Of a stretch of DNA of 64,000 nucleotides, positions 5,081 through 27,582 are shown piece by piece. Under the pieces are notes generated by a model. That model did no database searches. It was not told the DNA's origin and worked only from the letters and a program-made list of their open reading frames with translations. Source of the stretch: a virus (taxonomy: Duplodnaviria; Caudoviricetes); IMG/VR virus record IMGVR_UViG_3300022555_000003, positions 178,081-242,080 of that record. One strand, given 5' to 3'. Position 1 is the first letter of the stretch; each line of letters starts with the position of its first letter. A program made the position numbers and the translations under genes.

Positions 5081-5107
5081 TGGAGCGTATAAATTACGCT
5101 CCATTTT
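5081..5107. terminator. intrinsic terminator hairpin between convergent genes
   Basis: TGGAGCGTA-TAAAT-TACGCTCCA followed by TTTT. Confidence 0.65.
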
Positions 5108-5873
5108 CATGAGTGAGGAAATATTTAAATATTTCTTGTTGATCTTTTCTTATTTTCAATAAATCGTCTGGTAAAGTAAACCACTTAGTATTACCAGTTT
5201 CAAAGTCTGTATTAGAAAAGTTATTAGGATCAAATATTTCACAAGCAAATACATGCAAATCGTATTGTTTATACTTAAAAATATTTATTGGCTCAACTTG
5301 TTTGACATTTGAAAGAACTAATCCAACTTCTTCTTGTGCTTCTTTCAATGCATTATTTATTGGGCTGTAACTTGGTTCAATTCCACCTTTTGCTAATTGA
5401 AATTTTGTTCCACCAAATGAAGGATCAGACGGTTTCATTAGTAATACTTTTAATTTACCATTATCATAGTAATATGGAATCATCCCCGACTTATCTCTTT
5501 GTTTAGTTGAAATATCATGTAAAAACTTTATAGCTTGTAGCTTATTAGGAAATTCATGAAATAAATTAGTCTTTTCGTCTGTCAGATTGAAAGCATACCC
5601 ACCACTAAGTGGATGCGAAGCAATATGTTTAATAATATTAAGAATATTTTTAGTAGTAGATTTAAATTCGTATTCAATTCTGGTTCCTGGAGTAAAGTTA
5701 ACTCCACCCAAATAAGTAGCAAATCGTACCGCACCATTGTTCATTTCTAGATCAATATCTGGAACTAGATCTCTGTGTGCTGCTGGATAGTATCCTGAAA
5801 ATCTTTCAATTAGTTTGCCGCTGGCTGTTATTAATCCAAAATATGTTTGATGTTCAACTTCATTTAATCTCAT
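5094..5873 (-). CDS. Nudix hydrolase with N-terminal extra domain and capsid-targeting-like N-terminus
   Basis: Nudix box variant GGIEPSYSPINNALKEAQEEVGL; starts MRLNEV. Confidence 0.85.
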   Translation of the reverse strand: MRLNEVEHQTYFGLITASGKLIERFSGYYPAAHRDLVPDIDLEMNNGAVRFATYLGGVNFTPGTRIEYEFKSTTKNILNIIKHIASHPLSGGYAFNLTDEKTNLFHEFPNKLQAIKFLHDISTKQRDKSGMIPYYYDNGKLKVLLMKPSDPSFGGTKFQLAKGGIEPSYSPINNALKEAQEEVGLVLSNVKQVEPINIFKYKQYDLHVFACEIFDPNNFSNTDFETGNTKWFTLPDDLLKIRKDQQEIFKYFLTHENGA

Positions 5874-7318
5874 TGTTTTAGGTTCCTAATCATATTTTTA
5901 GCCAATACTTCTGCATCATGTCTTGTAAAATTTGGATTCTTAAGAGTAGCATCAAGTATTTTATTTTTGATATCGCCAACTAGTCTACCTTTTGCACCCA
6001 ACGCCATAATTTCATTACCATCCAATATACTCTTAGTATTAAGGATTTGATTGATATCCATTTGTTGGATACGCTTTCTGATCATATTGATTTGTTCTGG
6101 CAATCCGTGACCTACAGCATGAGAATTATTGTCTGCATTGATTACGTCCAACACATCCTCAAGATTGTGACTAACTCTGTAGATAAACTTTCTAAGAGTT
6201 GAATCCTTCATAAGTGTTCCATCTGGACCAGCGCTCTTCAATCCCATATGATTACTGATAATAATACAAACTTTATCAATAACTTCAGTTGGGTATTTTA
6301 GTCTACGCAAAGCAACTTTTGCAATGTCTGCTCCAATACTTTCGTGACCAATAAATTGCACTTTTCCATCTTTTTCTGTTCTCGTTGAAGATTTTCCACA
6401 ATCGTGAAATAGTGCCGCTAGTCTCTTAATAAGGTCTGGTGAACTATTGTCTAGAACTGTTAGAGTGTGTCCAAGTGCATCTTGGTTATGAAACTTGTTT
6501 TGCTTTAGCTTATCTAGTGCTTTAAGCTCAGGCAAAATTACGTCCATAATGCCAGTAATTCTAAATAGTTCAAATGCTTTACCAGGCTTATTAAGAACAA
6601 GAATTTTACTGATCTCATCATTGATTCGTTCTGCACTGATACTCTTAAGAGAGGGAGCAGCTTTTTTAATTGATTTAATGACATTAAGTGGAAGAGTAAA
6701 TCCATACTTAATTGCAAATCGAACAGCACGAAGAATACGAAGAGGATCTTCTGAAAATATTAGTTCTGGCTTTCCGGTTGTATTGAGTACTCCATTTTTA
6801 AGATCTTTCAAACCACGTCCACTCAAATCAAGTATCTCACCAGTTTGTAGATTTTGAATTAGAGAATTTATTGTGAAATCTCTGCGTAGTACATCATCCT
6901 TCAACGTTCCAGCCACTACAGCTGGCTTACGACTTCCTGGAGTATATTTTTCTGTCCTGGGTGCTACAAACTCGACATCCATTGGTCCCGAATTTGTTTT
7001 GATTGCAAGTTTTGCAGTAAAATATGTTGGGAACAATACAGGATTGCTATCTTGCTTAAAAATACCAAGCTTTTTAGCAATAAATGTGGCTGCATCAAGC
7101 CCAGCAGTAGGTCCACCATCAACAACAATATCGATATCTTTTGAATTTTTACCCAAAAGTGTATCACGCACAAATCCTCCAGCAATAAATAGCCTTCCGT
7201 CGAATTCAGATCCTTCGATTGCATTTTTCAGAAGTTCAATTGTTTCGTCGGTTTGTGATGATTCCATTATCATACTACTATTATACACTCTTTGGTTGAT
7301 AATTTCAAATATTTTCAT
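5870..7318 (-). CDS. cca: CCA tRNA nucleotidyltransferase (class II) with HD domain
   Basis: GGFVRD, KDIDI, DDVLRRDFTIN, EDPLRILRAVRF, FHDCGK; no PAP G[RK][RK]F signature seen; starts MKIFEI. Confidence 0.88.
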   Translation of the reverse strand: MKIFEIINQRVYNSSMIMESSQTDETIELLKNAIEGSEFDGRLFIAGGFVRDTLLGKNSKDIDIVVDGGPTAGLDAATFIAKKLGIFKQDSNPVLFPTYFTAKLAIKTNSGPMDVEFVAPRTEKYTPGSRKPAVVAGTLKDDVLRRDFTINSLIQNLQTGEILDLSGRGLKDLKNGVLNTTGKPELIFSEDPLRILRAVRFAIKYGFTLPLNVIKSIKKAAPSLKSISAERINDEISKILVLNKPGKAFELFRITGIMDVILPELKALDKLKQNKFHNQDALGHTLTVLDNSSPDLIKRLAALFHDCGKSSTRTEKDGKVQFIGHESIGADIAKVALRRLKYPTEVIDKVCIIISNHMGLKSAGPDGTLMKDSTLRKFIYRVSHNLEDVLDVINADNNSHAVGHGLPEQINMIRKRIQQMDINQILNTKSILDGNEIMALGAKGRLVGDIKNKILDATLKNPNFTRHDAEVLAKNMIRNLKQ

Positions 7319-7327
7319 TACTTTCCT

Positions 7328-7804
7328 TTATCCAATATACTTTTCTAATTTATTGCCGTCTGCTTGTTTTTTATATCCTAATCGTTCATAAAATGATTTG
7401 GCTGTTGAAGTTAACACTATTTTCTTAACTCCTTTTATTTTAGCTTCTTTTTCTAACGCATTTATAACTTGTGATCCAGCGCCCCTTTCAATGGATCCAA
7501 CATTCATAATTTCCGCTTCAGTTGATTTTCGTGGGATCCACATTGATCCAGCTGCTACAATCTTATTATTTAAAATAACAAATGCTGTCCTAATGTTAGC
7601 TCGCTGTGATAAAGGTGCATTGATTTGTATTTCTAATACTGTACTAATATGACATAATGCAGCATATTCATGATTTTCTTCGCCGTTTTCTTCCAATTCA
7701 GCTATTCGTTCATCAACTTGTTTAATTGATTGACGTGCAATATTATCAGACAGATTAATGCCAGTTTGTACATTTTCTTTTAATATCATTTCTGTTATTT
7801 TCAT
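7328..7804 (-). CDS. GNAT-family acetyltransferase
   Basis: VGSIERGAGSQVI (motif A), SFYERLGY (motif B); starts MKITEM. Confidence 0.85.
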   Translation of the reverse strand: MKITEMILKENVQTGINLSDNIARQSIKQVDERIAELEENGEENHEYAALCHISTVLEIQINAPLSQRANIRTAFVILNNKIVAAGSMWIPRKSTEAEIMNVGSIERGAGSQVINALEKEAKIKGVKKIVLTSTAKSFYERLGYKKQADGNKLEKYIG

Positions 7805-8184
7805 TGCTTTTCTTTTTTCACAAACGAATTTACAGGACTTCGTTTGTTTACTGTTGTCGATTCTTCACTTTTGGTTGTACTAATTTGCTTAATTGCACTT
7901 TTACCTGGCATCATTTTCAAAGCTAGTTTAATTGTTTCTTCATCTTCTGGACATTGTGTTGAGATAAACATATTCTCACCAAATATTGAGTCTTCTACAT
8001 TAGTTTTTGGTAAAACTCCTGCTTGCAGAGCCCTTGCACGAGCAATAGCCATTCCCATCCTATATTGAAAATATGGGTCTTGATTGGTTAACTCAGGCAG
8101 AATAAATGCAGCAGGCAAAGCTCTTGCTACATCAATTTGAATACTACCTTCTCCACTTTCGTTTAATATTTCCTTAATAGTCAT
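7801..8184 (-). CDS. hypothetical protein, putative internal head protein
   Basis: Coupled ORF, starts MTIKEILNE. Confidence 0.7.
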   Translation of the reverse strand: MTIKEILNESGEGSIQIDVARALPAAFILPELTNQDPYFQYRMGMAIARARALQAGVLPKTNVEDSIFGENMFISTQCPEDEETIKLALKMMPGKSAIKQISTTKSEESTTVNKRSPVNSFVKKEKQ

Positions 8185-8537
8185 TTAAAGTTTCCTGGAT
8201 TCTTAGATTTATTGAAAAAGTCAGCAGTAACTTTATCACTTACATTAACTGGCTTATTCTCTTTTTTGTGAACTACATATGTTGGGTGTGGCAAATTTAA
8301 TTGATGTGCTAATATTTTACTTGGATTACCATAATATGATTGTTGTCCAATTCTAACGCTTATATCATTTATCCTTTGTATTGGAATATAAACTGATAGA
8401 TTTCCTTTTGTATAAACATGCTCGTTATTTTGAACTCCATCATACATATATCCGTTGTCAACAAGCATATTATTCGAAATGACCTGATTGGCTGTCATCT
8501 TTCCAATTTTTTTGACACTAACTTCACAAATTTGCAT
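8181..8537 (-). CDS. hypothetical protein, putative internal head protein
   Basis: Starts MQICEV, 6 nt after ATAAATA. Confidence 0.65.
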   Translation of the reverse strand: MQICEVSVKKIGKMTANQVISNNMLVDNGYMYDGVQNNEHVYTKGNLSVYIPIQRINDISVRIGQQSYYGNPSKILAHQLNLPHPTYVVHKKENKPVNVSDKVTADFFNKSKNPGNFK

Positions 8538-8546
8538 ATACTATAT

Positions 8547-9206
8547 TTATCTTATTTCTCGTTTTGCTTTTCGGGTTTCAGTTCGTTTTCTTATAGATTC
8601 GGCAGATTTTGGTTTGCCTTTAGATGCTTTTGATAAATTAGCTTTATGCTCATCAGATTTTGGTTTTGACATATTGGCTCTTGTTTCAGCAGATCGATTA
8701 CTTTGCGCTTTTGACATATTGGCTCTTGTTTCAGCAGATCGATTACTTTGCGCTTTTGACATATTGGCTTTTGCTTCAGCAGATCTTGGTTTTGACATAT
8801 TGGTTTTGACTTCATCTGTATATTTTCTGCCTTTTTGTGCTTTTGACATAGCAACCGAATGTAAAATTCTAGCAGATTCATATTCTTCTGGAGTTGGAAT
8901 ATATCGACCCGTTTGATTTGGTCTTATAAAGCACATATTAAAAAATGCATGTGACATTTTATAATAATCAGGACCAATATATAACATCTGAGTTAATAAC
9001 TGATGACATATAAAATGTTCTCGTCCAGTTAATACAACTAGATTATCGGGGTCATTTGGGTTGCCAGGTACCCATCCTGCTTTATAAAAACACCTTGGTA
9101 TTATATGGTGCTTTTCGGTATAAGTATCTGATGGAAGTGGAAACACTCTCGCCATCTCAATTATTTCATAATATCTTTTTGTTTGCGTGTTATTGATAAA
9201 TATCAT
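8547..9206 (-). mobile_element. free-standing HNH homing endonuclease with NUMOD3-like repeats
   Basis: EKHHIIP...NLVVLTGREHFICHQLL; C-terminal 45-nt (15 aa) tandem repeat ANMSKAQSNRSAETR. Confidence 0.85.
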
Positions 9207-9274
9207 TGCTGTTACTCCTTTTCAGTAATAGAGTAGTTGGGTGATTTCAACACCGCGAACTACATTATTATTTA
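9207..9274 (-). promoter_or_regulatory. late promoter plus conserved two-hairpin leader of HNH gene (copy 1 of 3)
   Basis: TAAATA...GTAGTTcgcGGTG-loop-CACCcAACTACtctATTACT-gaaa-AGGAGTAAcagcaATG. Confidence 0.7.
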
Positions 9275-9282
9275 GCAAAAAT

Positions 9283-14148: not shown

Positions 14149-14643
14149 TTATTTATCCAATTCTCCATATCCTTGTGCTTGCCCTTCATCACTGGTTGTA
14201 AAAATACTATTACTTCTTCTAGCTTCAATTCCAAGTAGTTTCAAATTCTTATCATAAGCAATTGTATTATCAATATCACTATCGACGGTCCGTCTTTTTT
14301 CAATACTAGCTGATTCAAAAATTACTCCAGATGGTCTTGTGCCACGAAATAATACTTTTTTTATTGTATCAAAAATATTAAGATAGTTACTAGCTTCTTT
14401 TTGTATTTTCTTTATTACATCTACTTCTTTCTTTATAACTTGTTTAACCTGAGATAATTCTTTCAAATAATGTCCTTTTGCAGTCTGATGAATGTTTTTA
14501 ACGGCATCGTTTGTTGTTTGTTTAATGTTATAATCAGAATCTTTAATCCAATAATTCAGTTTTTCCAGATGTGATTCGTCTTCCCACTTGTTTATTAAAA
14601 CAGTACGATGGCTCTTTGCTTCCATTAAGTCAATTATTTTCAT
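14149..14643 (-). pseudogene. putative ADP-ribosyltransferase paralog, C-terminally truncated
   Basis: Has LFRG, RRTVDS, LGIEARRSNSIFTTS..QAQGYG, then stops; lacks FSWS and HE motifs. Confidence 0.7.
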
Positions 14644-15488
14644 TTAGTGTATCCTAATTTTCTTCTAATTGTTTGAAATTCAAAAAAGTACTTTTCTAAT
14701 ATAGCAAAATATGCTCCATGTATTAGTACTTCATTTTCTGATTTTAAGGCGGCTGGAAAATTCTTATTAGTAACTCTAAATTTTTTCTGAAAGCTATCTA
14801 AATCTGGTTCTCTATTTAATAATTCTCTAGTATATTTAAGTACTGGAGATTCGGGGAATTTCAATGATATCCATTTTAAATTATCTACTATAGTACTTTT
14901 TTCTGTAAAACCTAATATTTCATATAGTTTAAATTTATAGTCAATCAAAGTAGATTTTAATTTCCAAACAAGATTATTATATTCTTTATCAGCCCTTTCA
15001 ATCTCGCTGTCAATTACATTTGTTATTTCTTTTGGATAATCTTTTACATAACTACCCATATGATCTAAAATCAAATCATTGTGTATTCTGCTCCAACTAA
15101 ATACTGCTGTATTTTTTGGAATGATGACATATGATATTTGTCCGTAGTCTGAAGAAGAATCCAAACTAGATGTGGTAAAAATACTATTACTTCTAAGAGC
15201 TTTAATACCAAGTAACGTCATCAAATTATCATATCTTAGAGTATCCGATTTGCTACTATCCATTGGACGTCTATTTTCAATACTTTCACCTTCAAAAATT
15301 ACTCCAGTTTTTTTAGTTCCTCTATATAATACTCTATGTGTTGCATCAAATACTTTAAGATATTTACTGCATTCTTTCTGTATTTTAATAGTAATGTCAG
15401 TATTTATTTGTGCGCCGTCTTCCCACTTGTTTATTAAAATTACACGGGTTGAATGTTTCTTTGCTTCCATTAAGTCAGTTATTTTCAT
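14640..15488 (-). CDS. putative ADP-ribosyltransferase-fold paralog
   Basis: LYRG / SNSIFTTS / YVIIP / FSWS / SENEVLIHG; starts MKITDLME. Confidence 0.6.
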   Translation of the reverse strand: MKITDLMEAKKHSTRVILINKWEDGAQINTDITIKIQKECSKYLKVFDATHRVLYRGTKKTGVIFEGESIENRRPMDSSKSDTLRYDNLMTLLGIKALRSNSIFTTSSLDSSSDYGQISYVIIPKNTAVFSWSRIHNDLILDHMGSYVKDYPKEITNVIDSEIERADKEYNNLVWKLKSTLIDYKFKLYEILGFTEKSTIVDNLKWISLKFPESPVLKYTRELLNREPDLDSFQKKFRVTNKNFPAALKSENEVLIHGAYFAILEKYFFEFQTIRRKLGYTK

Positions 15489-16474
15489 TTAAGTAATCCT
15501 AACTTAGTTCTGAGTGGTTGAAGGTGTACGAAGAAGTCCTCTTCAGCTACAGCAAAATATTCTCCGTGTATTAATACTTCATGCTTGGATCTGATTGCTG
15601 CTGAAAAATAAGAATCATAAACTCCATACTTTTTTTGAAATTCTTTAAGATTATATGTTGGATTTATTAGTTCTTCTGAATATTTAAGTATTGGAGATTT
15701 TGGTTTATTTTTAGAGATCCAACTAACTAACCCTTTGGCATCTTCGATAGTTTCTTGATACAACAAATCTCTCAATGAATTATTATATTCTGTCATTTCT
15801 TCAATTTTATTTTCGTCTTTTAGTTTCGATATAATAGCGTCACTTTTATCAAGCTCTTTTTTAATCACATCTTTTAATTTACTAGAATACCTAGGGCCTA
15901 ATAATGCTCTTCTATGTGTAGAATCTAACACCAAATCAGAATATATAAAGCTCCAACTAAACACTGCTGTATTCTTAGGTATAATTACATATACTTTGCT
16001 TCCATAATCACTTGCCTGATTTGAACTTCCTGTTGTAAATGTACTATTACAACGTAAGGCTTCAATACCAAGTAACTTCAATTTTTCATCATATTCTTTT
16101 GACAAAAGATTACTACTGTCCTTAGGATGACGATTTATTGGACTCGTTGCTTCAAATATAGATCCTCCGTTAGTAGTACCTCTGAATAAAAAATTGTTGA
16201 TTTGATCATATACTTTAATGTAATTACTACATTCTTTTTGTATTCTCTTAGCAATAGCAGTCTCTGAATTAATAATTGGTTTTATTTTGGATAACTCTTT
16301 CTCACAATCTTTTAGTAGTTTTTTAAACTTTGTCTTTTCTTTTGGATCTTTTTCTTGTTTAATAAGAGATGTGATATCGACGATATCTTTATTTACATCT
16401 AATCCATCTACCCATTTAGTCAGTAAAGTTTTTCGTTTACTAACAGATTCTAATAGTAAGTCATTTATTTTCAT
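15485..16474 (-). CDS. putative ADP-ribosyltransferase-fold paralog
   Basis: LFRG / NSTFTTG / FSWS / SKHEVLIHG; starts MKINDLLLE. Confidence 0.6.
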   Translation of the reverse strand: MKINDLLLESVSKRKTLLTKWVDGLDVNKDIVDITSLIKQEKDPKEKTKFKKLLKDCEKELSKIKPIINSETAIAKRIQKECSNYIKVYDQINNFLFRGTTNGGSIFEATSPINRHPKDSSNLLSKEYDEKLKLLGIEALRCNSTFTTGSSNQASDYGSKVYVIIPKNTAVFSWSFIYSDLVLDSTHRRALLGPRYSSKLKDVIKKELDKSDAIISKLKDENKIEEMTEYNNSLRDLLYQETIEDAKGLVSWISKNKPKSPILKYSEELINPTYNLKEFQKKYGVYDSYFSAAIRSKHEVLIHGEYFAVAEEDFFVHLQPLRTKLGLLK

Positions 16475-17454
16475 AATAATTTTTTAACCATTGGCCAAAA
16501 TAGATGATTAATGGCAATATATTTTCCGTGTATTAATACTTCGTTACGAGACTGTAATGCCGCTGGCATATCACTATTAGTGATCTGATATTTCTTTTGA
16601 AATTTATCTAAATTAATTGTAATTGTATATTCAATGAGATCATGAAGTATTGTCGAGTTTGGAAAGTTTTTCTCTATAAAATCTAAAGTGTAAAATCGTG
16701 TATCAACTTGTTTAAACTTAATAATATCTTTTAAAATTAGAATATATCTATACATGACTCTGTGTTTGTCGGGGAGATAGTAATCATCGTCATTTATCAG
16801 GTGTTGATATTTTGATAATTCTAGTCTAGATTTGTTAATTAACTCAATTGGTAAATCATACAAATCATCAAACGAATTACTTGTTAGTACTATATCGTCG
16901 GACGTCAATGAGCATGAAAAGTCTGCTGAATCTTCAGGAATAATTATATATGTATTCCCATATATTTGTACAGCCTGTTTCGAACTACTAGTAAAAATAC
17001 TATTCAATCGAAGCGCTTTAATACCTAATTGTGTTGCACATCCATCAAACAACTTACTCATTATAGCACTACTATCAAGTGGTCTTCTTTCTGACAGAGA
17101 TTCTGATTCAAATGCAGTTAAGTTTCCATTGATGCCACGATATAACCATCTTTGTTCTTGTTTAAAAATATTTACATACTTATTGCAACTAGATTTAACT
17201 ATCTGTTGAACATTATTTATAACATCCCTATAGTTAGTCATGTCATTAATTATTTTTTCTTCCTCATCAATGACATTCTCATAATATCCAATACTCTCTG
17301 TATCAATGGGTTCACTAGACTTAATTAAATCTATTTTATTTCTGAGGCGGTCAATACGCTCTATACAAGATGTATAAACAATAATATCAAAATTACCAGT
17401 CAATGAGACTTTCTTAGGAGCTCCATCTTCATTGATAATCTCTGAGAAACGCAT
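16471..17454 (-). CDS. putative ADP-ribosyltransferase-fold paralog
   Basis: LYRG / NSIFTSS / SRNEVLIHG; starts MRFSEI. Confidence 0.6.
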   Translation of the reverse strand: MRFSEIINEDGAPKKVSLTGNFDIIVYTSCIERIDRLRNKIDLIKSSEPIDTESIGYYENVIDEEEKIINDMTNYRDVINNVQQIVKSSCNKYVNIFKQEQRWLYRGINGNLTAFESESLSERRPLDSSAIMSKLFDGCATQLGIKALRLNSIFTSSSKQAVQIYGNTYIIIPEDSADFSCSLTSDDIVLTSNSFDDLYDLPIELINKSRLELSKYQHLINDDDYYLPDKHRVMYRYILILKDIIKFKQVDTRFYTLDFIEKNFPNSTILHDLIEYTITINLDKFQKKYQITNSDMPAALQSRNEVLIHGKYIAINHLFWPMVKKLL

Positions 17455-17457
17455 TAG

Positions 17458-17904
17458 TTAGGCCCTTGCTTTCTTAGTCATTGACCGCATTTTCCACGCC
17501 CATTTTTCGTGAGCAGCAATACGATCCTGTAAAAAGTTTTGTAGACCTAAATGATCACCAGCTTGAGCATAAGTTTCTTCTAATAGCTTAATCACAACAT
17601 GATTGTTTTCTAATAGCTCTTCAATCATTAATTCAGCTCTAGGAACTAGTAATTGTTCACTAATTTCAGTTAGTTCAGCAAAACGTGCTAAACTTCCTGG
17701 AGCATATATGTCAAGTGCTCTGATATGTTCAGCAATATCATCACATGATTCAAACACATCCTGATATAATTCACCTAGGAATGCATGATAAGAATGAAAA
17801 TGGGGACCTTCTAGGTTCCAATGGAAGTATTGAGCTTTTAGTTGGAATACATAAGATGTAGCTAATAAACGTTTGATCTTTTCTTCGAGATGTAGGATAG
17901 TCAT
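17458..17904 (-). CDS. dps: Dps-family ferritin-like protein
   Basis: HWNLEGPHFHSYHAFLGELY...DDIAEHIRAL...HEKWAWKMR; ATAAATA 5 nt before ATG. Confidence 0.92.
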   Translation of the reverse strand: MTILHLEEKIKRLLATSYVFQLKAQYFHWNLEGPHFHSYHAFLGELYQDVFESCDDIAEHIRALDIYAPGSLARFAELTEISEQLLVPRAELMIEELLENNHVVIKLLEETYAQAGDHLGLQNFLQDRIAAHEKWAWKMRSMTKKARA

Positions 17905-17931
17905 ATAACTATTTATCTACATGTTAAAATA

Positions 17932-18706
17932 TCATTCACCAAATAATTTTATTTTAATATCTGGCCACACACTAATGTGAATACCATAATATTCGCCATG
18001 TATTAATATTTCATTGCCTGATTTTAATGCACTAACGAAGTTTGTTGAATCAATTTGATATTTTGCTTGAAACTTATTAATATTTGCTGGAACGTCTTTG
18101 GCATCATCTAATATAATATCATCGTGAGTTTTACTCCAACTAAAATCAGCGGAGTCTTTTGGTATAATTATATATCTTGTTCTAGTTGTATTCTGACCAA
18201 AATTTAAATAGGCAGAGATTTGGCTAGCATCTCCGCTAGTAAAAATACTATTTTTTCGTTGAGCTTTAACACCCAATTTATCTAACTGCCTGTCAAACAA
18301 AATAGACATATAATTATCACTATCAACAGGAATTCTGTCAATGAGACTCCTGTCTTGATATAATGCTCCACGATTTTTTCTGGCACTATATAAACATTCG
18401 TCGGTTTGTTTAAACACACTTAAATATTTTTTACACTCAGCGTTAATTTGCGGAATAAAATTGTCAAATTGTGCTAAGTAATCAGTAAATTGCTTCATCA
18501 ACATTGTATATTTTACTGTTTCTTCATCAATATAATCCTGTGTTGATTTATATTCGGGGTTACTTTTATCAATCTTAATAAGATATATTTTTAATTCTTT
18601 TATATTGTGATCAATTTGAAGAATTTTTTTTATTTAAACTAGCTTGTATTTTGGGAACTAAAATTTGTTGATGTTTAGTTTCAGTTAAAAATTCATGTGA
18701 TCTCAT
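17932..18706 (-). pseudogene. putative ADP-ribosyltransferase paralog with +1 frameshift at an A8 run
   Basis: MRSHEFLTE... from 18706 stops after the A8 run (T8 at 18624-18631); removing one A joins it to the open frame of ORF 17932-18504. Confidence 0.7.
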
Positions 18707-19701
18707 TTTAATAATTTACCTTTGAGTGCTTCCCAAACTGAACTATGCAAGCCATAAAACTCACCATGTATTAGTATTTCATTTCTGGTACTAAGTGCTT
18801 TATCAAAATTAGTTGTATCAATTTTAAATATGTCTATAAACTTCTTTATATCAACAGTTGGTTTATATTTAAGAAGTTTTTTGGATATTTTCAGTATTGG
18901 CGAATTAGGAAATATTTGTTTAATACGTCTTAAATTAAAATCCATGTTTGTATAATTTTGCTTGTCAAGATTATATAATATCTTGTGATATTCATTACTG
19001 GTCCAGTAATGATCATCATCGTCATTATTATCAATATCATCTGTTACTTTTCCCAACTCATCGCTTATTATTTTTTTAAATGGACTATCTACATAAGTTG
19101 GAATTATTGATGAGTTGCTTAGTATTAGATCGTCGTTGGATTCACTCCAGCTAAAATCAGCTGTACTTTTAGGTATAATAACATACTTTGTTTGGCCATA
19201 GCCACCAGCATGTGATGAGTCAGACGAAGTAAAAATACTATTTCCTCTGCGTGCTTTAACACCCATTTCTTGTAATATTTTGTCAAATGATATAGTAATT
19301 CCTTGGTCGCTGTCTCTTACTTGTCTATTTTCAACACTACGTCCAACATATAATCCACCATGCATTCTACGGCCACTAAACAAACACTTATCTGTACGTT
19401 TGTAAGCGTCTAGATAAGTTTTACAGTCGTTACGAATTTGAGGAATGAATGGTGTAAATAATTTTAAATAGTCTTGGCATCTCTTTTTAATTCTTGCATA
19501 CTTAGCTTCTGCAGCATCTAATTCAATTTTAACTTGTTCAGCTGATGAAGCATTAAAATCTTTACTGGTGTTGTTTACAAGATTATTATATCTTTTCTTT
19601 AAGTAATAAACAGTATGTCGGTTTAATGTAACATTATTTATTAACTCAGTATTTATAGGTGTTACTAAAACTTCCATATCTATTACTTCATTGATTTTCA
19701 T
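18703..19701 (-). CDS. putative ADP-ribosyltransferase-fold paralog (FSG variant)
   Basis: LFSGRR / NSIFTSS / FSWS / TRNEILIHG; starts MKINEV. Confidence 0.6.
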   Translation of the reverse strand: MKINEVIDMEVLVTPINTELINNVTLNRHTVYYLKKRYNNLVNNTSKDFNASSAEQVKIELDAAEAKYARIKKRCQDYLKLFTPFIPQIRNDCKTYLDAYKRTDKCLFSGRRMHGGLYVGRSVENRQVRDSDQGITISFDKILQEMGVKARRGNSIFTSSDSSHAGGYGQTKYVIIPKSTADFSWSESNDDLILSNSSIIPTYVDSPFKKIISDELGKVTDDIDNNDDDDHYWTSNEYHKILYNLDKQNYTNMDFNLRRIKQIFPNSPILKISKKLLKYKPTVDIKKFIDIFKIDTTNFDKALSTRNEILIHGEFYGLHSSVWEALKGKLLK

Positions 19702-20672
19702 TGGAATAACTTCCCTTTAACTATGTCCCATATACTGTTATGTATCCCATAATATTTACCATTTATTAGTATTTCGTGATTTGTGTTTAGTACCGCTTCC
19801 ATTGAGGTTGTATTAATCTTGAACTTTTCTTGAAACTTGTTGAGATCAATTTTTGGTTTATATTTAAGTAATTGATCTGCTATACTATTAACTGGAGAGT
19901 CAGGATATTTATTTTTGACATAAGCTAAATCAGTTTTAATGTTATAAAAATTTTGTCTATATAACCATTCTAAGATTTGTAAGTATTTGTAATGTTGTCC
20001 AATATCAGAATCACGTTCAATTCTTTCTTTTTCATCTTTAAGAATCTTTTCCATATTATCTGGCAATGGTCTGTAAGTTAATTTCAATGAATAACTACTT
20101 AGTACTAGATCATCTCTTGTTTCGCTCCAACTAAAGTTAATGTCATTGAATGGAATTATTATGTATCTATCAGCGCCATATTCTGCAGCATGACATTCAC
20201 TTGACGTTGTAAAAATACTATTTCCTCTACGTGCTTTAACACCAAGTTTTTTTAATAAACTATCAAATTTGGTTGTAACAGAGGCCATACTGTCTTTTGG
20301 TCTTCGTTTTTCTAAGCTTTCATCCTGATACAATGCTCCATGAAATCTACGTCCACTGTATAATACTTGGCCTGTTCTGTTAAATAATTCTAGATAATGA
20401 CTACAGTTATTTTGAATTATTGGTCCGAATTTTGAAAATTCTTTCATTGAATCAGCAAATCTTTTTTGAGTTTTTATAACATTATCTTTAGCTTTTTGCA
20501 ACTCTTTTTTAAATTTAGCAGCTTGTTCTGGAGTTGTACTTTCCAACTTGTTATGTTCAATACTTTTTACTTTGTTAATGCCTACTTGCAATGTAGCTTG
20601 TAACTCAAGCTGAACACTATGTATTAAAACTTTTTCATTTGCGCTTTCAACAATAAATTCGTGTGACCGCAT
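19698..20672 (-). CDS. putative ADP-ribosyltransferase-fold paralog (YSG variant)
   Basis: LYSGRR / NSIFTTS / FSWS / TNHEILING; starts MRSHEFIVE. Confidence 0.6.
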   Translation of the reverse strand: MRSHEFIVESANEKVLIHSVQLELQATLQVGINKVKSIEHNKLESTTPEQAAKFKKELQKAKDNVIKTQKRFADSMKEFSKFGPIIQNNCSHYLELFNRTGQVLYSGRRFHGALYQDESLEKRRPKDSMASVTTKFDSLLKKLGVKARRGNSIFTTSSECHAAEYGADRYIIIPFNDINFSWSETRDDLVLSSYSLKLTYRPLPDNMEKILKDEKERIERDSDIGQHYKYLQILEWLYRQNFYNIKTDLAYVKNKYPDSPVNSIADQLLKYKPKIDLNKFQEKFKINTTSMEAVLNTNHEILINGKYYGIHNSIWDIVKGKLFQ

Positions 20673-21721
20673 TACATATCTCCTTTAAACAAATCAAATA
20701 AATCAATTTGAACCGCAATGTATTTTCCATGTATTAGTACTTCGTGCTTTTTAATTATAGCAGTTTGTAAGTTGGTGTCCATTGGTTTATATTTTTTCTT
20801 AAATTTATTCAAATTGACTCGGCTATATTCAATACTGTTTAATGTAAGTAGTAATGATTCAGGAAAATAATAATTTAGAAATTTTCGACCAGTGAAAGAA
20901 ATAATTCTGTTTCCAGTAGTTCGAACATCTAGTAGATATTTATAATAACATTGTAGAATTGATAATTTTTCATTATATTCATTATCGTTTGATTTTGATA
21001 TTAACTCTTTCTCTTCTTCAATTTTAGTCTGTATTTCATCTAATTCATTGTCTAAGGCGGCAATCACTTCGGGTGAAAAAGACATTAGTCCATTAAATGA
21101 ATCACTATGTAATATTAGATCCTTTCCAGCCTCTGACCAGGAATAATCAGCTGTATCTTCAGGAAAAATAACATAAATGTTATTACCATATGATTTAGCT
21201 TGGCTTATACTACTTGATGTAAAAATACTGTTAGAACGCAGAGCTTTAATACCTAATTCTTGTAAACAACTATCATATAATATAGTAGAATCTATATTGC
21301 TATCTTTTGGAGGTCGATTATTAGGACTGTCGGATTCAAATGCAGGAAATGAATTTGACTGACCACGATATAACATTCCACTATGCTTGAAGATTCCAAT
21401 ATATTCACTACATCTTTTTTTAATTATTGATATCAATAATTTTATGTTTTCTTTTAAATTTTCTTCTTTGTATTGATTTTTTTGAAGTTCAGCAATTCTA
21501 TCAGTTAATACTTTATATTCTTTTTTAATTTTAAAAGATTCGTCAGATGTAATTTCTGGATTAAACCATATTTTTTCATGACATTCTGCTTGTTTCTTTT
21601 TTAAATCAATAATTACATAAGTAACCAATGGATCAACAGAAATGTCTACCAATGGATCAACAGAAATGTCTACCAATGGAGTTTTAACTGGTTTTATGTT
21701 CTCTACTTCAAATAGTCTCAT
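20672..21721 (-). CDS. putative ADP-ribosyltransferase-fold paralog
   Basis: Start moved to MRLFEVE (TAA-T-ATG); LYRG / NSIFTSS / YSWS / KKHEVLIHG. Confidence 0.6.
   Translation of the reverse strand: MRLFEVENIKPVKTPLVDISVDPLVDISVDPLVTYVIIDLKKKQAECHEKIWFNPEITSDESFKIKKEYKVLTDRIAELQKNQYKEENLKENIKLLISIIKKRCSEYIGIFKHSGMLYRGQSNSFPAFESDSPNNRPPKDSNIDSTILYDSCLQELGIKALRSNSIFTSSSISQAKSYGNNIYVIFPEDTADYSWSEAGKDLILHSDSFNGLMSFSPEVIAALDNELDEIQTKIEEEKELISKSNDNEYNEKLSILQCYYKYLLDVRTTGNRIISFTGRKFLNYYFPESLLLTLNSIEYSRVNLNKFKKKYKPMDTNLQTAIIKKHEVLIHGKYIAVQIDLFDLFKGDM
21624..21680. repeat. 24-nt in-frame tandem repeat (PLVDISVD x2 plus partial)
   Basis: ACCAATGGATCAACAGAAATGTCT x2 + ACCAATGGA. Confidence 0.9.
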
Positions 21722-21722: not shown

Positions 21723-22736
21723 TTAGTTTTTCTTTTCTGATATAGTAAGTAACGGTTCAAAATTTGAATTAGGTACAAATTCGTGTTTACGTATAACTGT
21801 CTTAGCTAAAAGCTCAAGTTCATCTTTAAATTTGTTCCATACTAGCACGAATGGAGCATTAACATCAGTTTTTAAATCTTTTAATACTGCTTGAAAGCCT
21901 GGATCTTTCTTTTTCAATTTTGGTGCATATTTTCGATAAGTTTCAATGAATAATCTGGCAAGTTCATTGATTGTTATTGGTTTCTTATTACGTAAATCAT
22001 TTACTCTATCTAAGAAGTGTGTTGAAAAATGAACATCCATTCCAGCTAGCTCCCAAAATTGATTTAAATACTTCTCCAGAGAATGCAATTCATCATTAGT
22101 AATTTCTTCCGTTATTTTCTTTTTGGTACCTGACGGGGCAACTGCCATAGCGTCCTTTAAGGTTTTGAAATAACTCATCCCATTAACTTTTAACTTTGAT
22201 ATTTGAACAGCTCTTTTTGGATCACCAGCTGCTGCTGAAATATAAAATGCTTTTTTATCATCTTCTGCTGCTGCTTTTCTCAATGCTGAAGCACTTCCAA
22301 GTCTGGGACTTTGTACGTGAGTAATTGATTTAAATGTATACTTACGTCCTAACTTGTCTGGAACTCCATTATAATCTTTAAGAAGTTTACCACTCCACCC
22401 ATTCCAATCTTCAATATCAGTTACATATATTAAATCAGTTACTTCAGGATGATGTTGATTAATATAAAAAGCTAATGTAATAACTAATACTTCAGGAATG
22501 ATGTGTCCTTTAAGGGTTGGATCAAATGCTTCCATCCAAGCTTTTTTAACTTCGTAAGTAAGTGGATTATCTTTATTATGAGTAGTAGGACTAGTACCAA
22601 CAAACCATAAATTATTGTCAGCTGAATGTTTAACAACTTCAAATAATTTAACATGTCCCATATGTACTCCGTTAAATCGACCAAAGCACATAGCGGCTGT
22701 TGTATTACTTGCTTCAAATAATTGTTTGAGGTTCAT
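21723..22736 (-). CDS. HIGH-family (cytidylyltransferase-like) nucleotidyltransferase fused to an unknown C-terminal domain
   Basis: CFGRFNGVHMGH (HxGH), NPLTYEVK, SASALR; second domain after ITEE (HFLDRVND). Confidence 0.75.
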   Translation of the reverse strand: MNLKQLFEASNTTAAMCFGRFNGVHMGHVKLFEVVKHSADNNLWFVGTSPTTHNKDNPLTYEVKKAWMEAFDPTLKGHIIPEVLVITLAFYINQHHPEVTDLIYVTDIEDWNGWSGKLLKDYNGVPDKLGRKYTFKSITHVQSPRLGSASALRKAAAEDDKKAFYISAAAGDPKRAVQISKLKVNGMSYFKTLKDAMAVAPSGTKKKITEEITNDELHSLEKYLNQFWELAGMDVHFSTHFLDRVNDLRNKKPITINELARLFIETYRKYAPKLKKKDPGFQAVLKDLKTDVNAPFVLVWNKFKDELELLAKTVIRKHEFVPNSNFEPLLTISEKKN

Positions 22737-23849
22737 TTAATGTTTTCCTAAGTTTGCTGCTGAGAATTTAAATCTATCAACTAACTTTACTGGGCCTGTA
22801 TTGGTATGTACAATGAATCCTTCTTGACCAGTTTCATCACCTATTCCAGCATGTAAATCAGTAGTTGATTTATCAAGTTCATTTATTATCTTAAATTTTG
22901 CAACTGTAAGTAAACTAAACACAGTCATTACAGCACTAAATGCACTTTGATTTTTTTTAATATGTTCTAATATTCTAGGAGTTGCTGGTCCAGATTGAGT
23001 TTCTAACCATTTAATAAACTGTTGATCTAAATTAATTAATGATTTACTATATATAACATGTTGATTAACGAATGTTTTCAATAATGTCAAAAATGATTTA
23101 ATCTTTGCTTCAGCTAAATCAGACTGATTAAATAATTGATCAATTGATGGACCAAACTTAGCAACTAATTGTGTAGCTTTTTTAAGTTCATCAGGCTCAG
23201 TAATAGTTACATTAGGAGCTAATTGGTCTGACATTATTAATAAGCCATTTACTTGATTTCTTACAACACTTTGTAAATCAGTATCAGTAACGTGATGTCC
23301 TGAAGTTGCTCCAGCATCTAACTTACTATGCACTATAATTCCAACTTTGCTACGTCCTATTAACTTACCGAGTTCAGTATCAACGTTAACTGAATAAGTA
23401 ACTGTATTTGGAGTGAAGACAAACTTATCGCCTTGTTTTGGAGGTTGAGCTGTATACATTAAGTCTCCAAAAAGATATCCCGAAAAGCTTGTCGGAATAC
23501 TCTTTTCAAAAATTGGCCACAGTGAAGAATATAAAGCAAGTAAATGTTGATTGGTGCCACCTTTTCTAGCTGATAATATTTGTTCAAGTTCTTGTATACT
23601 ATGTGGAGGAGTACTGATCATATACTTATCACCCATAGCAAAACCAACTTTATCTCGTCCCCAGAATATAGCAGGCTTTCCGTCTGGCTTTAAACTTACT
23701 GTTTGTGGTTGTTTAATAGCTTGTCGTAATGCATTGATAGAGTCTGTTATCGCTGCTGATCCAATGAATGCAGCGTCTTCAACATGTTCAATTCGAGCTT
23801 TTTTAAGATTATATGTCTCTTCTTCTGTAATAAATTCTGATGATCGCAT
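22737..23849 (-). CDS. DUF6267-like protein, covalent nucleotidyltransferase (ligase)-like motifs
   Basis: KPDG (motif I), LFGDLMY (III), EGFIV (IV), VKLVD (V); starts MRSSEFITEE; ATAAATA-N5-ATG. Confidence 0.6.
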   Translation of the reverse strand: MRSSEFITEEETYNLKKARIEHVEDAAFIGSAAITDSINALRQAIKQPQTVSLKPDGKPAIFWGRDKVGFAMGDKYMISTPPHSIQELEQILSARKGGTNQHLLALYSSLWPIFEKSIPTSFSGYLFGDLMYTAQPPKQGDKFVFTPNTVTYSVNVDTELGKLIGRSKVGIIVHSKLDAGATSGHHVTDTDLQSVVRNQVNGLLIMSDQLAPNVTITEPDELKKATQLVAKFGPSIDQLFNQSDLAEAKIKSFLTLLKTFVNQHVIYSKSLINLDQQFIKWLETQSGPATPRILEHIKKNQSAFSAVMTVFSLLTVAKFKIINELDKSTTDLHAGIGDETGQEGFIVHTNTGPVKLVDRFKFSAANLGKH

Positions 23850-23875
23850 ATCAGTATTTATCTGAATTAATAATA

Positions 23876-24607
23876 TTATATTAATCGTTCAGCAAGCATA
23901 TCTTCGTATATTTCTTTTCTAATAGCAATATATGTTCCGTGTACTAGTATTTCATGGCCAGATTTTAATGCAGCATCCAGATCAGTCTGGTCAAGTTTAA
24001 ATACTTGTTGAAATGCTTTCAGATCCAAAATATTTAAATTTGAACTAGGTTGTAATACTATATCCCGATGTGTTTGAGACCAACTAAAATCATCAGAATT
24101 AAACGGAAAGATAACATATACTCTACCATATGAGATAGCTTGGCTTACACTAGTTGTAGTAAAAATACTATTTGATCTCAACGCTTTAATGCCTAGTTTG
24201 GTTGCAAATTCATCATATTCTTCTTGAATTACCATGTAACTGTCTTTTGGTTCTCTATCAAAAGGTGAATAAGCTTCGAATGCTGCTGGCTTCTTACTTC
24301 TAATTCCACGATATAATACTCTATCATTCTTTTTAAATGCATCATAAAATTTACTACATTCTGATTTAATTCTATTAGATATTTGTTCGTAAGTTTTTAT
24401 TATGTCAGTATTTGAATTAATCTTTTCTAATTCATCATTGGCGCGTGCAAGCTTCTCTTGAAATAATTTTTTTCGTGATTCACTAGTAGTCTGATTTATA
24501 ATTCTAACAAAAAATTGTATGTTAAGTTCGATATTTTCTTTAGCAATTGGATCGTAATCTGCTAGTAAAGTAACTACATTTGATTTTGATATTTCGTTTA
24601 GTCTCAT
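23876..24607 (-). CDS. putative ADP-ribosyltransferase-fold paralog (short type)
   Basis: LYRG / SNSIFTTT / FSWS / SGHEILVHG; starts MRLNEI. Confidence 0.6.
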   Translation of the reverse strand: MRLNEISKSNVVTLLADYDPIAKENIELNIQFFVRIINQTTSESRKKLFQEKLARANDELEKINSNTDIIKTYEQISNRIKSECSKFYDAFKKNDRVLYRGIRSKKPAAFEAYSPFDREPKDSYMVIQEEYDEFATKLGIKALRSNSIFTTTSVSQAISYGRVYVIFPFNSDDFSWSQTHRDIVLQPSSNLNILDLKAFQQVFKLDQTDLDAALKSGHEILVHGTYIAIRKEIYEDMLAERLI

Positions 24608-25335
24608 AATAGTTTCTCAATGATCATATCTTCATATAAATCATGCCTAACTGCAATATACTTACCATGTATTAGTACTTCATGTTCAGAAAATAATGCC
24701 TCAGGTAAATTAGTCTGATCAAGTTTATATGTCTGTTGAAACTCTTGTACGTCTTTAAAATGTAATGGCTTCTCAGCGAATAATACAAGATCCTTTTTTG
24801 CATGAGACCAGCTAAAATCAGCTGAACTCTTAGGAAATACGACGTATAGATCGCCATAAATTCTAGCTTGATCTTCGTCTGACGATGTGAAAATACTATT
24901 TGATCTTTGTGCTATAATACCAAGTTGCTCAGCAAATCTATCAAATTTTAATGTATTAACTAATCCGCTGTCCTTAGGTCGTCTGTCAGTTGGACTATTC
25001 GATTCGAATGCTGCTGGTTTGTTATGTCTGATGCCTCTATATAATACAGCATTACTTCGTTTGAATATACTATAAAATTTACTACATTCATTTTTAATCT
25101 TATCAGCTAATTCTTTTAATATATCATTTGACTTATTATATTCTTCAATCTTTCTTAATTGTTCTTTGGCGTGGTCTAACTCAACCTGAAATATTGCTTT
25201 ACGTTCAGGAGTAACATAATCTCTATTTAATTGATCAGTATAATACTGAATGTCTAAATTTATGCTGTTAAGTTTAGTAGCGTTATACTTATCAATTAAT
25301 GTCGTTATGTTAGTAGATATTTCATTCAATCTCAT
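24604..25335 (-). CDS. putative ADP-ribosyltransferase-fold paralog (short type)
   Basis: LYRG / SNSIFTSS / FSWS / SEHEVLIHG; starts MRLNEI. Confidence 0.6.
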   Translation of the reverse strand: MRLNEISTNITTLIDKYNATKLNSINLDIQYYTDQLNRDYVTPERKAIFQVELDHAKEQLRKIEEYNKSNDILKELADKIKNECSKFYSIFKRSNAVLYRGIRHNKPAAFESNSPTDRRPKDSGLVNTLKFDRFAEQLGIIAQRSNSIFTSSDEDQARIYGDLYVVFPKSSADFSWSHAKKDLVLFAEKPLHFKDVQEFQQTYKLDQTNLPEALFSEHEVLIHGKYIAVRHDLYEDMIIEKLL

Positions 25336-26060
25336 AATAGTTTCTCTTTTATCATATCTTCATATACTTGATATTTAATAGCAATATATCGTCCATGTAT
25401 TAATACTTCATGTTCTGATTTTAATGCAGCATCCAGATCTGTTTTCTTTAATTTGTATATCTCTTGGAATGATTTTAAGTCCTTAAATCCAGCTTTATGT
25501 TCAAGATATAATATAATTTCTCGTCGAGATTCTGACCAGCTAAAATCAGCTGTATCTTTTGGGTATATGACAAATAGAATGCCATAATATCTAGCGTGAC
25601 ATTCACTCGAAATAGTGAAAATACTATTTGATCTAAGTGCTTCAATTCCGAGTTCTTGAGCAAACTTATCAAATAATATTGTATTATTAACATCACTGTC
25701 CTTAGGTTCTCTATTTACTGGGCTCATTGATTCAAATGCTGGCGGATGTTTATATTTGTATCCTCTAAACAATACTTTATCACATTTCTTAAAGGCATTA
25801 TAAAAGTCTCTACATTCAACTTTAATTTTAGTAGCTAATTTTTCCAATGAACCTTCCGGAAGTGATTCCAGATATGTTAATTCTTCTAGTGCATCTTCTA
25901 AATATTGTTGAGTTATTTTTTTATGCTCTTCTGTTTGTGGCTGCCGCATAAGTTTTTTATAATATGATATTTGCGAATTAATTGAATTTCTCCTAATAGG
26001 ATCAAAATTCGCCGGTAGTAACAGTATTTTGTTTGAATCAATCATTTCATATAGACGCAT
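25332..26060 (-). CDS. putative ADP-ribosyltransferase-fold paralog (short type)
   Basis: LFRG / SNSIFTIS / FSWS / SEHEVLIHG; starts MRLYEM. Confidence 0.6.
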   Translation of the reverse strand: MRLYEMIDSNKILLLPANFDPIRRNSINSQISYYKKLMRQPQTEEHKKITQQYLEDALEELTYLESLPEGSLEKLATKIKVECRDFYNAFKKCDKVLFRGYKYKHPPAFESMSPVNREPKDSDVNNTILFDKFAQELGIEALRSNSIFTISSECHARYYGILFVIYPKDTADFSWSESRREIILYLEHKAGFKDLKSFQEIYKLKKTDLDAALKSEHEVLIHGRYIAIKYQVYEDMIKEKLL

Positions 26061-26078
26061 AGTAATATTTATCTAAGT

Positions 26079-26810
26079 TTATAGTAATTTTTTACTTACC
26101 ATTTCGTTGTATATGTCGTCTATAATAGCAATATATCTACCATGAATTAATATTTCGTGACCTGATAATAAAGCTTTATCTAAACTAAGTTGATCAAGCA
26201 TAAATTTTTGTTGAAATAATTGGATTGATGTGCAACTATCTAACATGTAAGGAACTAATACTATATCAGAATATTTCATTGACCACGAAAAATCAGCTGT
26301 ATCTTTTGGAAAGATATTATATAAATAATATCCATACTCTTTAGCTTGAGATTTTTGAGTAGTAGCGAAGATACTGTTTGACCTGAGTGCTCTAATTCCA
26401 AGCTGTTCAGCAAATGTATCAAATTTTATTGTGGCTATTTCATTACTATCCTTTGGCCGACGGCCTTCTATACTAGTTGATACAAATACTGGTGGTCTCT
26501 CATTTCTAATTCCTCTAAATAATACCTTGTTTACTTTCTTACAAGCATTATAAAATTTACCACATTCATTTTTAACTTTATCGGCTATTTTTTTAATCTT
26601 TTCATCTATTTCTTTGGCATCAATATCATTTAGAATATCTAGATTGTAGTCTATAGATTGTTGTAATGACTTTCTATCTTCTGGATCAGTTGAATCATTT
26701 TGTAATTTAATCAGATTAGCAATATTCTTCTCAGCACTCTCTTTTTCATCTAATCCTATTTCAGATAGTAACGAAATTATATTTTCATCAGACATTTCAT
26801 ATAGACGCAT
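26079..26810 (-). CDS. putative ADP-ribosyltransferase-fold paralog (short type)
   Basis: LFRG / SNSIFATT / FSWS / SGHEILIHG; starts MRLYEM. Confidence 0.6.
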   Translation of the reverse strand: MRLYEMSDENIISLLSEIGLDEKESAEKNIANLIKLQNDSTDPEDRKSLQQSIDYNLDILNDIDAKEIDEKIKKIADKVKNECGKFYNACKKVNKVLFRGIRNERPPVFVSTSIEGRRPKDSNEIATIKFDTFAEQLGIRALRSNSIFATTQKSQAKEYGYYLYNIFPKDTADFSWSMKYSDIVLVPYMLDSCTSIQLFQQKFMLDQLSLDKALLSGHEILIHGRYIAIIDDIYNEMVSKKLL

Positions 26811-26818
26811 AGTAATAT

Positions 26819-27582
26819 TTATATAAGCCTATTATAATACCTGATCTAACAGCAATATATGTGCCTTTAATCCAAATTTCGTGTCCAGATAATAATGCTT
26901 CTTTTAAATTAGTATCTGAATGTAATCCTAAAACCTTAACCATATTATTAATATTAAAATTAGTACGTAGTTTAAACTCTCCAAATTGCTTTTTAATTGG
27001 ATGATTCAGGTAATCGACTCATGTATATTTCTAGAAGATTACGTTGTTCAAGCACATTATTAATAATAGACAAATACATTCTATTAATAGTTCCATGGTA
27101 ATTATCTTCAACTATTGAAGGATTACTTGTTGGATACTTATCTATATAATCTTTTAAAGCTTTAGTGAATTGACTAGTATAAGAGTATGCTCCATATTTA
27201 ATTACTGAATCAAAATCAAAAACTAAGTCATCATCATTTTCACACCAAGTATAATGAAAACCATTTTTTGGATATATTTGAAATACTTCACCAAAATACT
27301 TTGCTAATTTATGTGAAGTAGTTGCATATATAGAATTTAGACGCCTAGCTTCAACACCAATACTATCAAGACCCCAATCTATTACTCTATATATTTCTGC
27401 ATTAGATGTCTTTGGAATACGATCAGTACTACTACTATCTATATAATAGTTATTCTCATCTCTGGAATGACCACGTGTTCCATGTAGTAATGGATGTTCA
27501 GGAACTTCTTTCAATACCTTAAGATAATCAGAACACTCAGTAGCTATTTTTTCTTCTAATGTGATATTTCAAATAAGCGCAT
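26819..27582 (-). pseudogene. divergent ADP-ribosyltransferase paralog broken by frameshifts
   Basis: ATAAATA-N5-ATG MRLFEISH* at 27582; body (LNSIYATT, YTWC) in another frame; C-terminal LLSGHEIWIKG back in the start frame. Confidence 0.65.

Follow-up and report, generated by a model that had tools for sequence, protein, structure and literature searches.

A recurrent N-terminal peptide on unrelated, predicted late proteins of an uncultured jumbo phage resembles the capsid-targeting sequence of T4

The window analysed here is a stretch of 64,000 nucleotides (nt) that forms the last 64 kb of the IMG/VR virus contig IMGVR_UViG_3300022555_000003 (242,080 bp, 33% GC, 74% complete according to CheckV). 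On its minus strand, a series of genes for enzymes and other proteins begins with variants of one short peptide, here called the tag. The contig contains a split family-B DNA polymerase gene whose best matches are Sinorhizobium phage Phosso, the Pseudomonas PA5oct group and Agrobacterium phage Atu_ph07 (~43% identity), together with T4-like terminase, sheath and gp15 genes. Because of these polymerase matches and the T4-like genes, we place it among the Rak2/Atu_ph07-like phages, as an uncultured jumbo myovirus of marine origin; Megablast against phage records returned no close DNA relatives. A preliminary description of this DNA had proposed that the tag is a modular signal that loads proteins into the phage head, and every N-terminus on which it relied was found at its ATG on the minus strand. 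The tagged genes of the window are listed below (window coordinates; aa, amino acids; ART, ADP-ribosyltransferase; NMNAT, nicotinamide mononucleotide adenylyltransferase; ORF, open reading frame).

5094..8537, minus strand: late operon of five tagged genes (118-aa protein, 127-aa protein, GNAT, CCA-adding enzyme, Nudix) with abutting or overlapping starts and stops
ATG 5873, minus strand: Nudix protein, MRLNEV (Pfam Nudix)
ATG 7318, minus strand: CCA-adding enzyme, MKIFEI (Pfam PolyA_pol and HD)
ATG 7804, minus strand: GNAT protein, MKITEM (Pfam GNAT)
ATG 8184, minus strand: ORF for a 127-aa protein, MTIKEI
ATG 8537, minus strand: ORF for a 118-aa protein, MQICEV
ATG 14144, minus strand: ORF with the N-terminus MLIKEV
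14149..17454, minus strand: four tagged members of an ART-like paralog family, MKIIDLME (ATG 14643, truncated), MKITDLME (15488), MKINDLLLE (16474) and MRFSEI (17454)
17932..18706, minus strand: broken family member, MRSHEFLTE (ATG 18706), 31 aa and a stop, then a 190-aa family-homologous ORF
18703..21721, minus strand: three tagged family members, MKINEV (ATG 19701), MRSHEF (20672) and MRLFEV (21721)
21723..22736, minus strand: cytidylyltransferase/NMNAT-like enzyme, MNLKQLFEAS (ATG 22736), Pfam domain from residue 17
22737-23849 (22737..23862 with promoter), minus strand: DUF6267 protein (KxDG, ligase-like), MRSSEFITEE (ATG 23849), with an N-terminal extension of 12-14 aa
23876..26823, minus strand: four family members of 242-243 aa, MRLNEI (ATGs 24607 and 25335) and MRLYEM (ATGs 26060 and 26810)
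26993..27595, minus strand: broken family member (ATG 27582), reading GATAAATA, 5 nt, ATG, MRLFEISH (8 aa), stop
50025..50468, minus strand: ORF for a 147-aa tagged protein, MKAFEI (ATG 50468)
49559-50005 (to 50021 with promoter), minus strand: homologue of the 2H phosphodiesterase Acb1, which counters the cyclic-oligonucleotide-based antiphage signalling system (CBASS), weak tag MTADEI, Pfam domain from residue 13

In its strict form, M-[KR]-[ILFSA]-x-[ED]-[IVMFL], the tag stands at the start of 25 of the 379 ORFs of the whole contig, while only 0.47 would be expected from composition; after internal Met residues the motif is found in 3 of 1302 cases. Our counts rest on this strict pattern because looser ones also catch NUMOD3 homing endonucleases. 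When the tag bearers were compared all-against-all by BLAST with their first 12 residues removed, they fell into one family of ~14 paralogs and ~15 further bearers without detectable mutual similarity, and the 25 strict bearers span ~16 families. The preliminary description had spoken of about 20 unrelated proteins. What holds of this is the modularity, the tag being carried by ~8 unrelated families in the window and ~15 in the contig; the number does not hold, as 13-14 of the bearers in the window, over half of them, are paralogs of a single family.

The tag is selected as a peptide and not as DNA, since synonymous codons vary: its Arg is encoded by AGA, CGA, CGT or CGG and its Leu by TTA, CTA or TTG. 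The DNA upstream of tagged genes is not conserved between bearers, most of which lie inside operons, and the homologous family of Atu_ph07 uses other codons, with Trp (TGG) at tag position 3. A signal at the DNA or RNA level is ruled out by these three observations. The hydrophobic residues occupy positions 3 and 6 in most tags and positions 4 and 7 in MKTFTQYLSE, MNTFNDLL and MTTLNDYL. In 32 ORFs, residue 5 is the Glu of a hydrophobic-x-E sequence; in others, this Glu is found at residues 8-10, tags ending at residues 8-9 being exemplified by MKITDLME, MNLKQLFE and MRSSEFITE.

Homologues from other phages were informative as to the boundary between tag and protein. The CCA-adding enzyme of Atu_ph07 (gp18) starts with MLTPELEN, carries no tag and aligns from residue 18 of the contig's enzyme. 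The DUF6267 proteins of cyanophage S-WAM1 and Vibrio phage 2.275.O begin directly at the conserved HLEHLED, and those of the contig (MRSSEFITEE) and of the T4-like phage Melnitz (MINFSKYITED) have 12-14 additional N-terminal residues. Pfam places the domain start at residue 17 in the NMNAT-like enzyme and at residue 13 in the Acb1 homologue. An AlphaFold2 model of a 243-aa paralog has a predicted local distance difference test score (pLDDT) of 90 overall and below 50 in residues 1-8. For the CCA-adding enzyme itself, IMG/VR held only 3 relatives, too few for a comparison of N-termini. Judged from these alignments and domain boundaries, the tag is an add-on relative to the untagged homologues.

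The best indication of where tagged proteins go was obtained from the cultured relative Atu_ph07, in which the same paralog family lies in tandem (gp53-gp63) and all members start with M[RK]WxQLxE or MRLFQLLE. In the published virion proteome of this phage, each of gp53 to gp65 is represented by 3-31 unique peptides (Attai et al. 2018, PMC6102473, Table S5); the gp numbering was fixed by counting from coding sequence 49 (histidine kinase) to coding sequence 70 (primase) and by exact mass matches. A pattern set a priori, ^M[KR]..[QED][LIFVMY].{1,2}E, was then applied to the whole 490-kb genome. It matched 21 ORFs, of which 18 coincide by mass and position with entries of Table S5, compared with a base rate of 131/714 (Fisher p = 1.6e-11, a value in which paralogs are not independent observations). 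Proteins outside the family are among the 18, namely gp381, gp482, gp487, gp548, gp561 and gp672, and the three tagged ORFs outside the proteome encode products of 8-17 kDa. Among the entries of the table are also gp257, the homologue of the contig's Nudix protein (4 peptides, 43% coverage), and gp113, the homologue of the contig's 199-aa MKTFTQYLSE protein (11 peptides). The untagged CCA-adding enzyme gp18 does not appear in Table S5. Atu_ph07 thus shares with the contig a homologous tandem paralog family that bears a sister N-terminal tag and is detected in particles; it differs in the dialect of the tag (Trp at 3, Gln at 5, Glu at 8) and in its CCA-adding enzyme, which is untagged and undetected in particles.

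Two further observations concern this relative. The annotated start of gp113 (MF403008, 84393-85148, minus strand; MDGLEK) is probably incorrect: with an in-frame ATG located 87 nt further upstream, the protein would begin with MKTLQDYLTE and align with the MKTFTQYLSE protein from its first residue. Other N-termini shared among Atu_ph07 virion proteins are M[ND]I[DE][KR]LK.LAG[IL] (gp111 and gp257) and [LI]RK[FY].NI[LI].E (gp33, gp206 and gp594), and these may represent additional packaging or propeptide classes.

The known signal that the tag most resembles is the capsid-targeting sequence (CTS) of T4, whose use on diverse internal proteins is well known (PMC3012670, PMC9026906). Ten N-terminal residues of internal protein III (IPIII) are enough for packaging; residues 4 and 7 are the main determinants of targeting, residues 8 and 10 determine processing, and the gp21 protease cuts after Glu (PMC9026906). 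According to the T4 record, the N-termini are MKTYQEFIAE in IPII and IPIII, MKTFKEF in IPI and MELITELF in Alt. Both signals are short peptides at the extreme N-terminus of unrelated cargo encoded by late genes (predicted late genes in the contig), the cargo including an ADP-ribosyltransferase (ART-like proteins in the contig), and both have a basic residue, hydrophobic residues at i and i+3 and a Glu in a hydrophobic-x-E ([L/I]-x-E) context. Some contig proteins even keep the exact T4 register (MKTFTQYLSE compared with MKTYQEFIAE; MNTFNDLL; MTTLNDYL), whereas most contig tags are one residue shorter in register, with the first Glu at position 5. Further differences are the number of bearers, ~25-33 in the contig (~8% of genes) versus four in T4; the cargo, which in the contig includes large enzymes (CCA-adding, NMNAT-like, ligase-like); and the phage, which is Rak2/Atu_ph07-like instead of a member of the Straboviridae.

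The tagged genes lie in transcription units headed by a putative late promoter. The word GATAAATA is overrepresented, with 65 occurrences where 38 are expected, and the other three NATAAATA words are depleted; 59 NATAAATA sites lie at most 60 nt upstream of an ORF on the same strand, 16 of them exactly 5 nt before the ATG. GATAAATA resembles the T4 late promoter TATAAATA. As had been claimed in the preliminary description, the units bear late promoters: the first ATG of every tagged unit is preceded at 5-6 nt by [GT]ATAAATA, a signal also present in front of tail and virion genes. GATAAATA is found in front of the gp15-like gene, a baseplate-like gene, several genes with 'virion structural' PHROG matches and an unannotated 213-aa ORF that directly follows the sheath gene and is taken to be the tail tube. 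From this promoter evidence, the tagged enzymes are most probably late proteins, and late expression would be odd for Nudix, CCA-adding or NMNAT-type enzymes unless they are destined for the particle. The promoters of the window and the remaining features of the region are the following.

8544..8551, minus strand: GATAAATA, late-type promoter, 6 nt before ATG 8537
17910-17917, minus strand: GATAAATA, late-type promoter, 5 nt before the ATG of the ferritin-like gene
23855-23862, minus strand: GATAAATA, late-type promoter, 5 nt upstream of the DUF6267 gene
26066-26073, 26816-26823 and 27588-27595, minus strand: GATAAATA at the heads of further tagged units
49559..50021 region, minus strand: GATAAATA, 8 nt upstream of the Acb1 homologue
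17458-17904, minus strand: ferritin/Dps-like gene, MTILHLEE, without canonical tag, inside the cassette and with its own late promoter; it heads the unit that runs on into 14149-17454
28691-30970: ClpA-like protein of 759 aa with two AAA+ domains (phrog_4871), directly adjoining the tagged cassette

If transcription starts as at T4 late promoters, sixteen late mRNAs would be leaderless. Examples in the window are found at 17905-17917, 23850-23862, 26061-26073 and 27583-27595, and most of the 16 genes have no Shine-Dalgarno sequence. Leaderless translation does not account for the tag, because structural genes with the same leaderless arrangement are untagged; as most tagged genes are in addition internal to operons, such a requirement was ruled out as its cause.

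Outside the window, a second GNAT is tagged, and further clusters of tagged genes are found at contig positions 17997-24954, between the tail tube and terminase genes, where there are ten more tag-like genes, and at 123703-130491. The latter region includes a 492-aa protein (contig 123703-125181) that starts with MILRELYEQLSE (MILRELYE, loose pattern only) and consists of a zeta-toxin-like P-loop kinase fused to a domain of the ART-like paralog family. In order to survey the spread of the tag, 43 IMG/VR loci holding a family member were searched with the loose pattern, which was found on 143 of 895 ORFs. Of these 143, 74 belong to the family (112 members in the loci) and 69 are other proteins, grouped in 30 clusters. 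Zeta-toxin-like kinases are among these non-family clusters, and free-standing tagged kinases of this type are present in related contigs. Tags are similar within a contig and differ between contigs (MKINEIDPG/MKIYEIEAG, MKIYEIINP/MKIFELLKP, MRWEQLTE), as is expected of a signal matched to each phage's own partner. The loose pattern is also fitted, probably by coincidence, by the NUMOD3 homing endonucleases MTFSEFLDN and MIFSEFLDN (window 8547-9206 and 42852-43718; contig 20592-21305 and 80356-80835).

The large paralog family was examined for its fold. The Gly of LYRG, the Ser of R-S-N-S and the Glu of GHE are invariant, and the Arg of LYRG is kept in at least 90% of the sequences; this Arg, Ser and Glu may correspond to the catalytic R-S-E (or H-Y-E) residues of ARTs. 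There was no Pfam match and no sequence match in the PDB, so no curated ART family model fits. Since fold searches with the full-length 243-aa model were swamped by a helical hairpin, the short member P0008 was used (tag and catalytic domain, no hairpin; model pLDDT 90). It matched 67 of 48,161 chains at Z>=2, and the top 50 were mostly ARTs: Arr (Z 5.3), cholix and diphtheria toxins, PARPs, DarT, Tpt1 and pertussis toxin. The Atlas search agrees with an ART fold, which must be divergent since the Z values are low. On the strength of the model, we interpret the family domain as a divergent member of the ART superfamily, comparable in role to T4 Alt but outside the Alt family. In the broken member at 27582, the family motif (ECSDYL...) goes on in another frame after an A-run; the breaks behind the tag at 17932-18706 and 26993-27582 could reflect decay, assembly error or slippage. 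Two suspected homologies were not supported on testing: one at 26993-27514, the other between the MKAFEI protein (50025-50468) and Atu gp381 (MKWQDLSE...YHGS).

The KxDG motif of DUF6267 is invariant, and the domain resembles a ligase or capping-type nucleotidyltransferase. Its gene is paired with a cytidylyltransferase-like gene both in the window (22737-23849 and 21723-22736) and in cyanophage S-WAM1, where the cytidylyltransferase starts with MRFRQFIIE.

A packaging signal would need its head machinery, and for this we turned to relatives, because the contig lacks head-gene homologues. Atu_ph07 has a scaffold gene as well as a gp21 homologue, gp204. The related 179-kb contig G002 contains a tagged family member and a complete head module in the order portal, 78-aa MQLNEMF protein, gp21-type protease, scaffold and capsid. 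Its protease is 50% identical to Atu gp204, and the 78-aa protein is a homologue of Atu gp199 (MKLTELF). The capsid proteins of G002 and Atu_ph07 both begin with MSKL[FL].E ... ALLEG, which fits processing at L-x-E.

Taken together, these results suggest that the tag is a capsid-targeting system in the style of T4, enlarged to ~25-33 proteins, a reading to which we give a probability of roughly 65%. The preliminary description is supported in part: the idea of a modular signal that directs diverse late-made proteins into the virion is upheld by the tag's selection at the peptide level, its add-on character, its likeness to the T4 CTS and the presence of its sister in 18 of 21 cases in the Atu_ph07 proteome. 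The tagged proteins would be made late, and their short flexible N-terminal peptide would bind them to the scaffolding core while the prohead assembles. The tag would then probably be removed by a prohead protease of the gp21 type, after a Glu in an [L/I/F]-x-E context. The cargo (~14 ART-like paralogs, Nudix, CCA-adding enzyme, GNATs, NMNAT-like enzyme, ligase-like DUF6267 and zeta-like kinase) would stay in the head, leave with the DNA at the next infection and be active before any phage gene is expressed. On this reading, the phage probably delivers a large set of enzymes to the host together with its DNA, and cleavage after Glu and injection are plausible.

Several points weigh against this reading. 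The contig, complete to 74%, has no capsid, portal, protease or scaffold homologue in searches with T4, Atu_ph07 and PF03420, which matched only the terminase, the sheath and the gp15-like protein, and PHROG and Pfam scans of its large ORFs revealed no head genes; on our reading, these must lie in the missing part of the genome. No homologue of T4 gp55 was found in the contig either. The link to a virion proteome comes from the relative Atu_ph07 and not from the phage's own virions. Moreover, the Atu_ph07 particles were only purified with polyethylene glycol, and a RecA-like protein, single-stranded DNA-binding protein, ribonucleotide reductase and terminase were present too, at low coverage (PMC6102473). 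The core of the contig tag is 5-6 residues long versus the 10 of T4, and the loose pattern is not diagnostic, being matched by the homing endonucleases as well. Docking, cleavage, internal location and injection are inferred steps, and no precedent for packaged CCA-adding or NMNAT-like enzymes was found in the literature.

The same data might be explained if the tag sent proteins to the exterior of the particle, for example to the hair-like fibres of Rak2-like phages, in which case nothing would be injected. Atu_ph07 is indeed a 'hairy' phage, and its proteome does not separate internal from external proteins. However, the cargo proteins are soluble enzymes (ART-like, Nudix, CCA, GNAT) without fibre-like features, the tag resembles the head-core signal of T4, and the small protein encoded next to the portal is tagged too (gp199 in Atu_ph07, MQLNEMF in G002), so we regard an exterior destination as unlikely. 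A function outside the virion seems just as improbable, be it as a degron or handle for the ClpA-like AAA+ unfoldase or as a late chaperone or localisation signal. Although the gene for the unfoldase adjoins the cassette and Clp-family genes are common in the clade, this would leave unexplained the enrichment of tagged proteins in Atu_ph07 particles, the resemblance to the T4 CTS and the tagged genes inside the structural module. That the motif has no sorting function, being instead optimal for the translation of late or leaderless mRNAs or a 5' gene end spread by recombination, we consider very improbable. In favour of this, AT-rich genomes often have Lys at position 2 and A-rich early codons, and many late genes look leaderless. 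Against it, leaderless structural genes lack the tag, most tagged genes are operon-internal, synonymous codons vary, the Atu_ph07 family has Trp at position 3 and the upstream DNA is unconserved.

Packaged proteins of this kind have parallels beyond T4. The jumbo phages phiKZ and SPN3US have dozens of head-internal proteins, paralog families among them, that are cleaved after Glu by a T4-related protease (PMC9026906). The ejection and inner-body proteins of phiKZ-like phages have propeptides cut by gp175/gp245 at S/A/G-x-E; unlike the tag, these are long and varied, with no short shared sequence, and belong to another lineage with another cut motif. Iyer et al. 2022 (PMC9503650) made the case, from fusions and the surroundings of genes, that head packaging of ARTs and Nudix proteins is common in myoviruses. 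For these proteins, as for the polyvalent effectors fused to MuF, the idea is the one proposed here, of enzymes of nicotinamide adenine dinucleotide (NAD) or ADP-ribose that would be made late, packaged and injected by myoviruses, whereas their packaging was deduced from fusion to, or neighbourhood of, MuF or portal, and the contig proteins are separate, each with a short address tag. We found no description in the literature searched of a shared short tag in Rak2/Atu_ph07-like phages, and the passages of Attai et al. 2018 (PMC6102473) used here do not mention the shared N-terminus.

A wider reading of the capsid-targeting system is tentative, and we stop slightly short of giving it even odds. 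The tag might be an address label, readable in the sequence, that lists the injected proteome (~8% of genes) of an uncultured clade from DNA, a time-zero kit for anti-defence and take-over with lineage-specific dialects matched to each phage's own scaffold and protease. Such a kit would comprise ~14 diversifying ART-like effectors, RNA repair functions (CCA-adding enzyme, DUF6267, a kinase resembling zeta toxin or polynucleotide kinase) and enzymes of NAD and ADP-ribose (NMNAT-like, Nudix).

If the capsid-targeting reading is true, the internal-protein system of T4 would extend beyond the T-evens and serve Rak2/Atu_ph07-like jumbo phages as a general means of delivery that can be expanded. Injected effectors, prime candidates for anti-defence, would be predictable in metagenomic phages from their N-termini. 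The host would receive a CCA-adding enzyme, a ligase-like protein and NAD-related enzymes in finished form, which would point to host defences, such as tRNA damage and NAD depletion, that need to be countered before phage transcription.

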